From positions 4,354-68,353 of the forward strand of contig CANJBO010000006.1 of NCBI GenBank assembly GCA_947472995.1: a DNA stretch of 64,000 nucleotides, read 5' to 3'. Of this stretch, positions 58,442 to 61,981 are shown one piece after another. The DNA comes from Chloroflexota bacterium (GTDB lineage Bacteria; Chloroflexota; Dehalococcoidia; UBA2979). Within the stretch, counting starts at the first letter, position 1. The number at the start of each line of letters is the position of its first letter. The notes beneath the pieces were generated by a model, which was not told where the DNA came from, did no database searches, and saw only the letters and a list, made by a program, of their open reading frames with translations. Both the position numbers and the translations under genes were made by a program.

Positions 58442-59392
58442 TTAGCGCTTGCGGGCGACGACGCGGCGGACGGCCTGCTCCACGCCCTCGGCGGTGAGGC
58501 CCATGATCTCCAGGACCTCGTCCCACGTGCCCGACTCGCCGTAGCGGTCGTTCACGCCGACGAACTCCATCGGCACGGGCTGCGTGCTCGCGGCGATCGC
58601 CTGCGCGCACATCGCGCCGAGGCCCGAGTGGGTCAGGTGCTCCTCCGCGACGACGATCGCGCCGGTGTCGCGCGCGGCCGCCTCGAGCGCCGCGACGTCG
58701 AGGGGGCGGATCGTGCCCATGTTCAGCACGCGCACGGAGATGCCCGCGCGCTCCAGCACCTCGGCCGCGTCGAGCGAGCGGCCGACGAGCAGCCCGCACG
58801 CGACGATCGTCACGTCAGAGCCGTCGCGCAGCATGTTCGCCTTGCCGACCTCGAAGCGCGGGCCGTCCGTGTAGATGACAGGGATCTTGGGGCGGCCGGT
58901 GCGGATGTACCACGGGCCGGGCGTCGCGATCGCGGCCTCGACCATCGCCTGCGCCTCGACGACGTCGGCGGGGACGCACACCGTGAAGTTCACGAGCGAG
59001 GAGAAGAGCGCGTAGTCCTCGACGGACTGCGCGGACGCGCCGTCCTCGCCGGTGGAGACGCCGCCGTGGCTGGCGACGATCTTCACGTTGAGGCGGGGCT
59101 GCGCGACGGACATGCGGAGCTGGTCGAACGCGTGCTCCGCGAACACCGCGAACGTCGAGGCGACGACGGTGTGCCCGGTGGTCGCGAGGCCGCCGGCGGC
59201 GGAGATCATGTTCTGCTCGGCGACGCCGAACGAGAAGAAGCGCTCGGGGAACACGTCGCGGAACGTGCGCGCCGACGTGGACTTCCCGAGGTCCGCATCG
59301 ACGACGACGATGTCGGCGCCCTCCTGCTGCATGCGGACGAGCGTGGGGCCCAGGGCCTCGCGGGTGGCGGCGGAGGGGAGCGTGGTGGTCAT
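58442..59392 (-). CDS. Transketolase, C-terminal subunit
   Basis: ADLGKST, GVAEQNM, GEDGASAQ, EEH...GLG. Confidence 0.92.
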   Translation of the reverse strand: MTTTLPSAATREALGPTLVRMQQEGADIVVVDADLGKSTSARTFRDVFPERFFSFGVAEQNMISAAGGLATTGHTVVASTFAVFAEHAFDQLRMSVAQPRLNVKIVASHGGVSTGEDGASAQSVEDYALFSSLVNFTVCVPADVVEAQAMVEAAIATPGPWYIRTGRPKIPVIYTDGPRFEVGKANMLRDGSDVTIVACGLLVGRSLDAAEVLERAGISVRVLNMGTIRPLDVAALEAAARDTGAIVVAEEHLTHSGLGAMCAQAIAASTQPVPMEFVGVNDRYGESGTWDEVLEIMGLTAEGVEQAVRRVVARKR

Positions 59393-60216
59393 CAGTCAGC
59401 CAGTTCCTGCATCGCGAGCGCGAACTGCTCGGCGTTCGGGGCGGCGCCGTGGAACCCCGGGTTGTTCTCCATGAAGGAGACGCCCTTGCCCTTCACGGTG
59501 TCGAAGATCACCAGCGCCGGCTTGCCGCGCACGTCGCGCGCCCAGGCCAGTGCCTCCTCGATCGCCTCGTGGTCGTGGCCGTCGATGCCGGCGCGCACTT
59601 CCCAGCCGAACGCGCGGTACTTCTCGTCCAGCGGCTCGGTGCGCATCTGCGCGGCGGTGAAGTCGTCGTTCTGGATGCCGTTGCGATCGATGATCGCGAC
59701 GAAGTGGTCGACCTCGTGGTGCGCGGCGGCCATCGCGGCCTCCCACACCTGGCCCTCGTCCTGCTCGCCGTCGCCCATCAGCACGTACACGTGCGCGTCC
59801 GTCTGGTTCAGCCGCATGCCGAGACGGATGCCGAGGCCGAACGAGAGGCCCATGCCCAGCGCGCCCGCGGAGTTCTCGACGCCGGCCGGCTTGCCGAGGA
59901 CGGAGTGGCCCTGCAGGCGCGTGCCCTTCTTGCGGAACGTCGCGAGCTCCTCCACGGGGAGGTAGCCGTTCTCCGCGAGGATCGCGTACTGGACGGGGGT
60001 GCAGTGGCCCTTGCTCATGATGAAGCGGTCGCGCTCGGGCCAGTCGGGGCGCTGCGGATCGTGGCGCATGATGCGGCCATACAGCACCGCGAGGATGTCC
60101 GTCGCGGACAGCGAGCCACCGATGTGCCCGGACTGCGCGCCGTTCACCATCTCCACGACGTGTCGACGCACGCGCCTGCTCAGCGCGCGCAGATCAGTAC
60201 CCGCTCCTGCGACCAT
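59392..60216 (-). CDS. Transketolase, N-terminal (ThDP-binding) subunit
   Basis: SGHIGGSLS, RDRFIMSKGH, LQGH, GDGE..EG..WEA, KGKGV. Confidence 0.92.
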   Translation of the reverse strand: MVAGAGTDLRALSRRVRRHVVEMVNGAQSGHIGGSLSATDILAVLYGRIMRHDPQRPDWPERDRFIMSKGHCTPVQYAILAENGYLPVEELATFRKKGTRLQGHSVLGKPAGVENSAGALGMGLSFGLGIRLGMRLNQTDAHVYVLMGDGEQDEGQVWEAAMAAAHHEVDHFVAIIDRNGIQNDDFTAAQMRTEPLDEKYRAFGWEVRAGIDGHDHEAIEEALAWARDVRGKPALVIFDTVKGKGVSFMENNPGFHGAAPNAEQFALAMQELAD

Positions 60217-60321
60217 GCTCGCCCCCCGCGTAACCGGCGATAGGGCGTGAGTATACGGAGCGAATGCGGGCGGGTCGAACGGGCCCTCGCGACGACGTGC
60301 CTCGATGAGTCCCGGAGGCGC

Positions 60322-60492
60322 CTAGACGGAGCAGGACGAGTGGCCGCACACCGGGCAGAGGCTGCACCCCTCGCCGAAGACGAGCGGGCCGGCGCACTGC
60401 GGACAGCGCGGCCCGGCGTAGGCCCACCGCCGCCGTCGAGGCGTCGGGAGCTGATCCACGTCGGCCACCGGGAACGTCGTGTCGGGAGTCAT
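60322..60492 (-). CDS. Small zinc-ribbon protein resembling the NrdJ C-terminal zinc finger
   Basis: GAGGTG RBS, ATG; ...RCPQCAGPLVFGEGCSLCPVCGHSSCSV*. Confidence 0.7.
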   Translation of the reverse strand: MTPDTTFPVADVDQLPTPRRRRWAYAGPRCPQCAGPLVFGEGCSLCPVCGHSSCSV

Positions 60493-60511
60493 CTGGCACC
60501 TCACGAGGTAC

Positions 60512-60525
60512 AGAACAACCGTTCT
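60512..60525. promoter_or_regulatory. LexA (SOS) box
   Basis: AGAAC-AACC-GTTCT, perfect Chloroflexota/Gram-positive-type GAAC-N4-GTTC. Confidence 0.75.
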
Positions 60526-60544
60526 TACTGCTCTACCGTATGTG

Positions 60545-60558
60545 AGAACGCATGTTCT
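60545..60558. promoter_or_regulatory. LexA (SOS) box between the -35 and -10 of the minus-strand promoter
   Basis: AGAAC-GCAT-GTTCT lying within TTGACT (60564-60559) N18 TACGGT (60540-60535). Confidence 0.8.
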
Positions 60559-60617
60559 AGTCAAGCGCCGCTAGGATGCACCTCGACACCCCGCGCATCG
60601 AGGAGAACGACCCACCG

Positions 60618-60833
60618 ATGACTGCTCTCGTCCGCGGGCTGTTCATCGTGATCGCGATCGTGATCGCCTACGGCGTGTTCATGCAGGCGCGCGAGCCGGG
60701 GCCGCCGGGGCTGCGGGGCGTCTGGATGCACATGAAGCGCCTGGGCGGCAAGGTGCGGCTGGTCCTGCTCATCTACATCGCCGTCATCGTGATCAGCGCC
60801 GCGCTCCGCGTGATGGGCTGGGGCATCGGATGA
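60618..60833 (+). CDS. Small two-TM membrane protein
   Basis: GAGGAG upstream; two hydrophobic segments; ATGA overlap with glxK. Confidence 0.7.
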   Translation: MTALVRGLFIVIAIVIAYGVFMQAREPGPPGLRGVWMHMKRLGGKVRLVLLIYIAVIVISAALRVMGWGIG

Positions 60834-61981
60834 CGGCTGCCGGCAGCGTTCCGCGCCGCATCCTCGTCTGCCCGCAGGAGTTCAAGGGCTCCCTGACCGC
60901 CGTCGAGGCCGCCGCGACGATCGCCGCGGCCGTCCGCCTCGCGCTCCCCGAGGCCGAGGTGACCGAGCGCGCGATGGCCGACGGCGGCCCGGGGACCGTC
61001 GCGATCGTCGCGCGGGCAACCGGCGCGCGGCTCGTCACGCACGCGGCGACCGGCCCGCTCGGCGACCCGGTGCAGGCGACCTACGCGCTCCTCGAGCGGC
61101 CCGGCGAGCCGGCGCTCGCGGTGATCGAGGCGGCCTCGGCCGCGGGGCTCGTGCTCGTGCCGGCCGAGCGCCGCGACCCGGCGGTCGCCACCAGCGCCGG
61201 CGTCGGCGAGCAGATCCGCCACGCTCTCGCCGCCGGAGCGCGGCGCGTGATCGTGGGCGTCGGCGGCACCGGCACGAACGACGGCGGCGCGGGCGCGGCC
61301 ACCACGCTCGGCGTGCGGCTCCTCGACGCGAACGGCGCGCCGCTCCCGCCCGGCCCGCGCGCACTCATCGAGCTCGCGCGCGTCGAGGCCGGCGACGACG
61401 CGATCGTGCGCGACCTCGACCTGCGGATCGCCGTGGACGTGCAGAACCTGCTGCTCGGCCGCACCGGCGCGACGGCCGTGTACGGCGCCCAGAAGGGCGT
61501 CGCCGACTGGCAGGCCCCCGCCTTCGACGCCGCGCTCGCGCACTGGGCCGGGCGGCTGCGCGACGACCTGCACCTCGACCTCGCGTCCATGCCGGGCGCC
61601 GGCGCGGGAGGCGGGCTGCCGACGGGGCTGCTCGCCGCGTGCCCGCGCGGGCGCATCGAGTCTGGCGCCGCGCTGGTCGCCGACGCGATCGGGCTGTCCG
61701 AGGCGATCGCCGCCGCCGACCTCGTCATCACCGGCGAGGGCGCGATGGACGGGCAGACCGCCTACGGGAAGGCCGTCGCGCACGTCGCCGCGCTCGCCGC
61801 CGCCGCCGGCACGCCGTGCCTCGCCGTCGCCGGGATCGTCGAAGGCTTGCCCGCGGGCATCCTCGACGCCGAGCCGCTCGCCCGCGACGAGGCGGAGCGC
61901 CCCGCCGCGATCGCGCGCGCCGCGGATCACGCCGCCGCCGCCACGACGCGACTCATCCACAGGCACGTCGCGCCTCGGTAG
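60830..61981 (+). CDS. glxK: Glycerate kinase (GlxK type)
   Basis: FKGSLTA, MADGG.GT, GGTGTNDGG.G, YGAQKG, GAGAGGG, ITGEG..D.QT..GK. Confidence 0.92.
   Translation: MTAAGSVPRRILVCPQEFKGSLTAVEAAATIAAAVRLALPEAEVTERAMADGGPGTVAIVARATGARLVTHAATGPLGDPVQATYALLERPGEPALAVIEAASAAGLVLVPAERRDPAVATSAGVGEQIRHALAAGARRVIVGVGGTGTNDGGAGAATTLGVRLLDANGAPLPPGPRALIELARVEAGDDAIVRDLDLRIAVDVQNLLLGRTGATAVYGAQKGVADWQAPAFDAALAHWAGRLRDDLHLDLASMPGAGAGGGLPTGLLAACPRGRIESGAALVADAIGLSEAIAAADLVITGEGAMDGQTAYGKAVAHVAALAAAAGTPCLAVAGIVEGLPAGILDAEPLARDEAERPAAIARAADHAAAATTRLIHRHVAPR

Follow-up and report, generated by a model that had tools for sequence, protein, structure and literature searches.

Why would a bacterium keep the tail of one of its enzymes as a separate protein, behind two operators of the LexA repressor? 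This question is raised by a 64-kb stretch of DNA, called the window throughout, which spans positions 4354-68353 of contig C6 in the Chloroflexota assembly G000 (1.78 Mb in 55 contigs, 72.8% complete, 71% G+C) and was present in 20 DNA sequencing runs, their sources being freshwater and lake metagenomes. Within it lies a small gene for a 56-residue protein, MTPDTTFPVADVDQLPTPRRRRWAYAGPRCPQCAGPLVFGEGCSLCPVCGHSSCSV, referred to here as the microprotein, whose C-terminal end, CPQCAGPLVFGEGCSLCPVCGHSSCSV, resembles the zinc finger at the C-terminus of NrdJ, the class II ribonucleotide reductase (RNR). On the comparisons described below, the gene is predicted to be a new member of the SOS regulon.

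Homologues of the microprotein were sought by a word-indexed search of 5.8 billion proteins, which returned 34 stand-alone homologues of 55-72 residues (E 5.8e-11 to 7.9e-21), and by running phmmer exhaustively on 1.84 billion representatives, which gave 39 matches at E <=1e-3, 35 of them with 114 residues or fewer. Almost all were labeled as metagenome-assembled genomes of Dehalococcoidia or Chloroflexota. A species-level scan, employing one genome for each of 185,579 species, confirmed 108 relatives, of which 80 were retained as loci (L012-L091). In the homologue alignment the first 20 residues or so are free in both sequence and length and are followed by a basic patch, R-R-x-R-R, while the last 30 residues are nearly invariant (GPRCPxCxGPLVFGEGCxxCPxCGxSxC). 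The spacing C-x2-C-x9-C-x2-C-x2-C-x4-C was retained at all 80 loci, with each of the six Cys invariant, and at all 80 the finger ends the open frame. Most of these frames are shorter than 130 residues, the longer ones (up to 631) resulting from upstream read-through of the open frame, and no NrdJ sequence was seen upstream of the finger in the sequences displayed for the 80 loci.

The 25 codons of the finger were then compared between the window and the 80 loci. Differences at codon positions 1, 2, and 3 numbered 304, 189, and 713, respectively, and 579 synonymous codon differences were counted versus 330 that were non-synonymous. In the window itself, the G+C content of the microprotein frame is 0.65, 0.65, and 0.91 at the three codon positions; the third-position value (GC3) compares with 0.66 and 0.64 for two longer overlapping open reading frames (ORFs) and with 0.94-0.97 for the neighboring genes. 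The six-Cys pattern, the dominance of third-position change, and the GC3 value thus establish that the microprotein gene is real and under coding constraint.

The window protein begins with a variable N-terminus (residues 1-17), modeled with low confidence and probably disordered, followed by an RRRR basic patch at residues 19-22 and the C-terminal zinc ribbon, whose Cys residues (C30, C33, C43, C46, C49, and C54) fit the pattern CX2C-X9/10-CX2CX2C-X4/5-C. An AlphaFold2 model gave a zinc-ribbon hairpin of three short strands, with a predicted local distance difference test score near 85 for residues 31-56 and of 52-64 for the N-terminus. Pfam returned no significant match with the microprotein, and none to IscU/TSCPD; Pfam and NCBIfam together gave no signal of a DNA-binding, thioredoxin, or small SOS protein family, and the sequence holds no hydrophobic stretch or transmembrane segment. 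A Foldseek search of the model against the PDB found generic zinc ribbons only, the best at E 0.89 and none significant, and a PDB sequence search with the family profile found nothing below E 0.03, hence no solved homologue. Seven of the 80 loci (L066, L075, L077, L078, L082, L086, and L087) have TQLRL(R/K)(L/M)F in place of the arginine patch, some 40 nt ahead of the first Cys codon, and this sequence resembles the QLxLxL form of the beta-clamp-binding motif.

Two candidates met along the way were set aside. The ESM Atlas matches consisted of unnamed small-protein clusters and one viral cluster, which serve as leads only, and a candidate on a viral contig was rejected because its GPLVFGEG arises by chance in a frame that a longer ORF overlaps from the opposite strand. 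A reading of the microprotein as the precursor of a ribosomally synthesized and post-translationally modified peptide was likewise rejected: conservation lies in the C-terminal finger and it is the N-terminus that varies, no maturase was seen among the neighboring genes, and NCBIfam gave no SCIFF-type match.

The promoter of the microprotein gene (Table 1) has a -35/-10 spacer of 18 nt, and its second LexA box begins 9 nt past the -10 hexamer. One box in the spacer and another at the start site form the classical geometry of tight repression. Nearly all of the relatives' promoters displayed have the same order of elements, in which TTGAC(T/A)A runs into box 1 and is followed by a TA-rich hexamer, box 2, a GGAG-type ribosome-binding site, and ATG. 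An earlier reading of the window, made from its letters alone and called here the sequence-only reading, had described a 56-residue ORF at 60492-60322 with this C-terminal sequence and a GAGGTG ribosome-binding site, preceded by TTGACT-N18-TACGGT and two perfect palindromes, and it was correct in each of these particulars.

The palindrome AGAAC-N4-GTTCT occurs exactly twice in the window, both times at this promoter, and was found 0 times in 100 dinucleotide-preserving shuffles; across the full 1.78-Mb assembly the count is 8, versus 0 for a control pattern. The shorter GAAC-N4-GTTC occurs three times in the window versus 0.44 expected, the third copy lying within a HAD-type gene. Among the relatives, at least one perfect GAAC-N4-GTTC was present no more than 200 nt upstream of the guessed start at 61 of 77 loci, and the flanks held 4 sites in 414,781 nt. 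A further count covered boxes with one mismatch or none in the eight core positions, within a fixed 240-nt interval whose end lies 60 nt ahead of the first Cys codon; six of the 80 loci had too little upstream DNA and were left out. Two or more such boxes were found at 71 of the 74 evaluable loci and a single one at the other 3, against a background of 113 in 385,610 nt, or 0.07 per 240 nt, and the last two boxes were spaced 23-36 nt start to start at 64 of the 71. Control of the small gene by LexA is thus strongly supported as a prediction from sequence. The sequence-only reading had proposed that orphan homologues with upstream boxes might exist in related genomes, and also that homologues or boxes might turn out not to be conserved; the 80 loci, with boxes at all 74 that could be evaluated and two or more at 71, bear out the former.

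The host assembly contains lexA. AGAAC-N4-GTTCT is reportedly the published LexA box of Dehalococcoides. The motif GAAC-N4-GTTC is described as that of LexA in Bacillus, Mycobacterium, and Gram-positives generally in the relevant part of PMC3323433. A position weight matrix (PWM) was built from the 82 perfect boxes that precede the small gene in its relatives and applied to the host assembly with a cut-off of 16 bits, which yielded 12 sites, both microprotein boxes among them. Sites were situated 58 nt before recA, 7 nt before ruvB, and 47 nt before a second Y-family polymerase gene, two preceded dinB, and one preceded nrdJ; four preceded genes of no known kind or no clear gene. Eight other perfect GAAC-N4-GTTC sites of the genome, mostly inside ORFs, were not among the 12. 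The lexA promoter (L009, C29:11417-11428) has a one-mismatch box, GAACATATGTAC, after TTGACG, which is weaker than the microprotein operators. The position of the motif before recA, ruvB, and the two Y-family polymerase genes indicates that the LexA motif of the host is of the GAAC-N4-GTTC type, and not a different one as the sequence-only reading had considered conceivable.

Several other members of the candidate regulon were noted. The dinB gene also has a double operator, composed of two identical boxes (CCAGAACGAGCGTTCTAG) 68 nt apart (L001:1499-1582, C4:79036-79121). The top-scoring box of the genome, ATAGAACACACGTTCTAC (26.5 bits; L005:1499-1516, C7:9252-9269), has no clear downstream gene on either strand as judged by GC3 and may control a small ORF or RNA. 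Two paralogous, very acidic proteins, encoded at L006:915-1520 (-) and L008:85-804 (+) and ending in ...SAEKIAAGLSER, have boxes of 26.1 and 22.7 bits before their genes and no Pfam or NCBIfam match, and are candidate SOS genes. A 317-aa protein, L094:1504-2457 (-), again without a Pfam or NCBIfam match, has the box AGAACGCACGTTCG 31 nt before its start.

The finger that the microprotein resembles has been characterized in NrdJ itself. Loderer et al. 2017, in the sections pertinent here, reported a cysteine-rich domain (CRD) in 70% of the NrdJ sequences examined, ending in six fully conserved Cys (PMC5704485). In their model four of these bind zinc, and re-reduction of the active site falls to the pair formed by the third and sixth; none of the six could be spared for NrdJ activity driven by tris(2-carboxyethyl)phosphine (TCEP), and electrons of the CRD can pass to the active site of another subunit (PMC5704485). 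In the same portion of that paper, thioredoxins and glutaredoxin failed to reduce the CRD of the only enzyme tested, and the physiological reductant is given as unknown (PMC5704485). Burnim et al. 2022 predicted that 71% of dimeric class II enzymes carry this finger and described NrdJb of the split enzymes as an IscU-like domain plus finger (PMC9669993). In this NrdJa+b subclass the CRD is a separate polypeptide (PMC5704485, PMC9669993).

Residues 27-55 of the microprotein match the final positions, 731-759 of 759, of the NCBIfam model NF006417 (vitamin B12-dependent ribonucleotide reductase) with an E value of 1.8e-6. When an alignment of 35 family members was compared by hhalign with the tails of 13 relatives' NrdJ, a probability of 98.1 was obtained (E 7e-14, 31 columns), and the family profile recovered NrdJ C-termini in relatives at E values from 1e-4 to 1e-11. 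The host NrdJ is a protein of 759 aa encoded at C19:21878-24157 (-), and its tail, CPDCGQQLAYLERCLTCQSCGYSKCG, has a Cys spacing identical to that of the microprotein, C-x2-C-x9-C-x2-C-x2-C-x4-C. Beyond the six Cys, the NrdJ tails share with the small family the P after the first Cys, an L, an F/Y, the E-G before the third Cys, and the G-aromatic-S/T. The sequence-only reading had pointed to this likeness with the NrdJ C-terminus, and profile, alignment, and spacing agree with it. They strongly support, as far as sequence can, the finger being a stand-alone paralogue of the C-terminal six-Cys zinc finger of NrdJ.

The microprotein does not stand at the C-terminus of any class II RNR polypeptide: its gene is on contig C6 and nrdJ on C19, and in the complete genomes G009, G012, G158, and G221 the two lie hundreds of kb apart. 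This distance, together with the conservation and coding constraint, rules out a decayed nrdJ fragment, an origin that had been raised from the sequence at the outset. Other free forms of the finger were also encountered outside the small-gene family. Proteins P0069 and P0070, of 206 and 142 aa, match positions ~598-759 of NF006417 and are NrdJb-like, and P0064, of 64 aa, is another minimal finger, ending in CGYSKCN, that is nearer to NrdJ tails.

The distribution of the small gene was estimated in an evenly drawn sample of 301 Dehalococcoidia genomes with completeness >=80%, using a family-profile cut-off of E <=1e-9. Matches were obtained in 87 of the 301. The stand-alone form, defined as a match in an open frame shorter than 300 aa, was present in 55, of which two (G213 and G167) are doubtful, or in 54 of 300 when G245, flagged as unpublished, is omitted. 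In 3 genomes the match lay in frames of 416-630 aa, and in 29 it was found only at the end of frames of at least 800 aa, these being NrdJ tails. The stand-alone form extends over at least 12 family labels (f1, f2, f7, f11, f19, f24, f29, f43, f47, f52, f54, and f66), and in the window's own family 17 of the 18 sampled genomes have it.

The family of the window, f1, has two types of NrdJ, a short one of about 759 aa, which is that of the host, and a long one of about 1200 aa with a more divergent six-Cys finger in its tail (CPECGQLMMVRSGTCLKCMACGTTTGCS). The short-type nrdJ of the host has the box GGAACGTATGTTCC 37 nt before its start (L095:3700-3900; C19:24180-24197). For the 12 short-type nrdJ genes of f1 (L095-L106), partial or split matches (L111, L114-L124) being left out of the count, 9 have a perfect box at a distance of 37-70 nt from the start, usually just after a TTGC motif, 2 have a box with one mismatch at that place, and 1 has none. 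We predict from these sites that the enzyme and the free finger are co-induced in the window's family, and that elsewhere the free finger is induced alone. Among 19 f1 genomes, which are kin and incomplete so that the comparison is descriptive only, short NrdJ and microprotein were both present in 14, both missing in 2, and short NrdJ without microprotein present in 0. Short-type NrdJ was matched in 25 of 31 relatives' genomes and the long type in 5 of 5 further genomes searched for it; since NrdJ is near-universal in the sampled relatives, co-occurrence with it is powerless as a test.

What might a free NrdJ finger do after DNA damage? We tentatively favor the view, giving it somewhat less than an even chance, that it helps to re-reduce NrdJ in trans, most likely by serving as an additional electron shuttle while repair is under way. 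The two LexA operators would hold the small-gene promoter shut in undamaged cells, and RecA-stimulated cleavage of LexA would switch the gene on. The free finger would then act on NrdJ by the chemistry of the tethered tail, with four Cys on zinc and the third and sixth forming a dithiol/disulfide pair, and this pair would re-reduce the NrdJ active site and lead to a higher output of deoxynucleoside triphosphates (dNTPs) during repair. In the window's family, the LexA box on the short nrdJ would cause enzyme and finger to be induced together. A redox shuttle is favored because the zinc ribbon needs four Cys and the two that it can spare are nonetheless invariant, because transfer from a tail to another subunit is documented and NrdJa+b employs a separate CRD polypeptide, and because nrdJ is predicted to be co-regulated in the window's family. 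It is possible, if rather unlikely, that this is the first free, damage-inducible "redox tail" of an RNR, in which diffusible fingers link the reductant of a CRD-type class II RNR to its active sites and boost dNTPs. NrdJ(1-722) and the microprotein, both supplied as alignments, were also modeled as a complex; the prediction scored 0.00 in a run that had no controls, and we do not use it as evidence either way.

Several observations weigh against a part in NrdJ re-reduction. The host NrdJ has a complete tail, as the sequence-only reading had suggested checking, and every NrdJ examined keeps its own finger, so there is no missing part to supply. The microprotein is devoid of the IscU-like CRD part that NrdJb keeps, and the basic patch ahead of its finger has no counterpart in the aligned NrdJ tails. 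No LexA box was found before any of 6 NrdJ genes of families outside f1. Perfect boxes were likewise missing from all 8 NrdJ genes of five genomes that carry the microprotein (f24, f43, f47, and f52) and from all 5 long-type NrdJ genes; with nrdJ boxes confined to f1, co-regulation is not general. Three f1 genomes with the microprotein, G001, G003, and the single-contig G011, had only the long NrdJ detected. The nearest, non-significant Foldseek matches are the zinc ribbons found in ribosomal proteins and in TFS4, a factor of RNA polymerase. The run listing that holds the 20 DNA runs contains no RNA run with the locus. A separately expressed CRD gave no TCEP-dependent activity with a truncated enzyme, a result stated in the text of PMC5704485 as data not shown, the CRD having aggregated.

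Some of this evidence is what recommends a different reading, a real possibility although well short of an even chance, in which the microprotein is an SOS protein independent of NrdJ whose borrowed zinc ribbon and arginine patch bind nucleic acid or another protein. Factors of replication, repair, division, or translation are conceivable targets, and its Cys pair is perhaps a redox switch. The R-R-x-R-R patch is conserved and foreign to NrdJ tails, the N-terminus is variable and predicted to be disordered, the best structural matches are the ribosomal-protein and TFS4 ribbons, G011 has the microprotein and not the short NrdJ, and LexA control extends class-wide for the small gene but not for nrdJ. 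The double operator, moreover, suggests a product that must be off in normal growth, as is the case for checkpoint proteins and error-prone polymerases. Such a protein would be expected neither to keep all six Cys at 80 of 80 loci, including the pair dispensable for zinc, nor to have non-Cys positions (P, L, F/Y, E-G, and G-aromatic-S/T) in common with NrdJ tails; it is also without any DNA-binding or other family signal in Pfam or NCBIfam and without the transmembrane segment of many small SOS division inhibitors. Homology to the tail could also be mimicry, with the free finger serving as a brake or decoy that competes for the active site, the reductant, or oligomer contacts of NrdJ and thereby lowers or reshapes dNTP synthesis in SOS. 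It would then be a functional counterpart of yeast Sml1 in which the sign of regulation is reversed. Tight repression by two operators would suit a product harmful in growing cells, and in yeast a small protein that blocks reduction by the large subunit ties RNR to the damage response, as described, with reference to Zhang et al. 2007, in PMC6382339. We nonetheless regard a brake as improbable: in the window's family nrdJ itself is apparently SOS-induced, and co-induction of its inhibitor would be odd, it is not apparent why an inhibitor should keep the redox pair invariant, and damaged cells in the systems studied raise rather than lower their dNTP supply.

It is less probable still, and very unlikely, that the operators mainly serve the neighboring genes, by acting on a divergent membrane protein and glycerate kinase or by read-through into transketolase, with the small ORF an incidental feature or remnant. 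The neighbors seen at these loci are glyK, tkt, the membrane protein, and HAD. Both boxes lie in an 83-nt divergent spacer that adjoins the conserved gene for a 71- or 85-residue membrane protein with two hydrophobic, predicted transmembrane helices, and at loci arranged as in the window the boxes could dampen the promoter of that gene; inhibition of division is a common role of small SOS membrane proteins. Gene order is conserved as glyK, small gene, tktN-tktC, with glyK at 59, tktN at 54, tktC at 50, and the membrane ORF at 57 of the 80 loci. Downstream of the small gene no intrinsic terminator was detected, and read-through into tkt may occur at the time of damage; an Rfam scan of 59900-60900 gave no match. 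However, the membrane gene is the immediate divergent neighbor at only 27 of the 80 loci and is 345-2763 nt distant at 30. In all 6 of those 30 that were examined the gap holds another ORF, with a (V/L)(R/H/Q)YRRLG start in 4, which by our reading are aldo-keto-reductase-like, and different ORFs in 2. The boxes, in contrast, accompany the small gene at 74 of 74 evaluable loci, and the small ORF has coding constraint and a conserved ribosome-binding site. Transketolase, for its part, has on sequence evidence its own conserved promoter: (T)TCGACC-N17-TATACT was present in 21 of 21 aligned tktN spacers, from the window and 20 loci picked by hand from the 54 with tktN, and the remainder of the 105-nt gap is unconserved. 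With transketolase so provided for, and the membrane gene often distant, the small gene emerges as what the operators control, in a unit of one gene. The idea that the arrangement exists to place transketolase under SOS control is not supported. The sequence-only reading had placed the microprotein gene co-directionally upstream of split transketolase genes and connected the two; the position was confirmed by Pfam, whereas the connection is not supported in view of TTCGACC-N17-TATACT in the window and 20 of 20 relatives.

Table 1. Features of the microprotein locus and its surroundings, in window coordinates
Feature	Position	Strand	Remarks
tktC, other transketolase half	58442-59392		co-directional, downstream; Pfam
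tktN, N-half of split transketolase	59392-60216		co-directional, downstream; Pfam
Transketolase promoter-like element TCGACC-N17-TATACT	60250-60278	(-)	downstream limit of microprotein unit
Microprotein coding sequence, including stop	60322-60492	(-)	56 codons, ATG at 60492
Ribosome-binding site GAGGTG	60497-60502	(-)	4 nt upstream of ATG; equivalent GGAG-like sites in relatives
LexA box 2, AGAACGGTTGTTCT (gene strand)	60512-60525	(.)	about +4 to +17 of the inferred transcript; PWM 24.7 bits
-10 hexamer TACGGT (putative)	60535-60540	(-)	TA-rich hexamers at the same place in relatives
LexA box 1, AGAACATGCGTTCT (gene strand)	60545-60558	(.)	fills the -35/-10 spacer; PWM 25.2 bits
-35 hexamer TTGACT (inferred)	60559-60564	(-)	TTGAC(T/A) abuts box 1 in most relatives displayed
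Divergent membrane ORF	60576-60833, or 60618-60833 from second ATG	(+)	85 or 71 aa, GC3 0.94
Glycerate kinase glyK	60830-61981		upstream, divergent; start overlapped by membrane ORF

Taken together, the locus suggests an undescribed link between the SOS response and the synthesis of DNA building blocks. SOS regulons would gain a new type of member, a microprotein derived from the regulatory tail of an enzyme, and if the microprotein does act in NrdJ re-reduction, this tiny soluble protein could offer a handle for trapping the physiological reductant of CRD-type class II RNRs. It is in any case a small, expressible reagent for finding what the CRD finger binds and what reduces it. In one Dehalococcoidia family, furthermore, LexA control is predicted for a second NrdJ, the short one, beside a long NrdJ without a box. 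The domain and the regulator are both known. A literature search found no LexA regulon of this kind in Chloroflexota and no stand-alone NrdJ finger, supplements and most subscription journals being outside the search so that a prior mention is possible, and a stand-alone, LexA-controlled copy of the finger therefore appears not to have been described.

Among known systems, SulA, YneA, SidA, and DinI, which are small LexA-controlled SOS proteins, are like the microprotein in being short products behind LexA operators at the promoter; the microprotein differs in having neither a transmembrane segment nor a family match, and is unique as the paralogue of an RNR tail. Yeast Sml1 is small and largely disordered and ties RNR turnover to damage at the re-reduction step, according to the part of PMC6382339 that treats it, which is also what is proposed for the microprotein. 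The two have no sequence relation, however, and Sml1 is an inhibitor removed after damage, whereas the microprotein would be made after damage. NrdH-redoxin, thioredoxin, and glutaredoxin resemble it as small proteins with a redox-active Cys pair and feed electrons to RNR, as stated in PMC5704485; they have the thioredoxin fold and a single CXXC, in contrast to the predicted zinc ribbon of the microprotein. NrdJb, for example that of Pseudomonas aeruginosa, likewise presents the finger on a separate polypeptide that is workable without a covalent link to the catalytic barrel, on the accounts given in PMC5704485 and PMC9669993. NrdJb has an IscU-like domain and a fingerless partner, NrdJa, while the microprotein consists of the finger only, its gene does not adjoin nrdJ, and the host NrdJ is complete. 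The closest relative is the finger of the NrdJ CRD itself, with which the microprotein has in common the six-Cys spacing, the P, L, F/Y, E-G, and G-aromatic-S/T positions, and significant homology. It is set apart from that finger as a separate protein of 56 aa, encoded far from nrdJ and predicted to be under LexA control, in which the hydrophobic, IscU-like part of the CRD, 150-220 aa in length, is replaced by a basic patch and a variable N-terminus.

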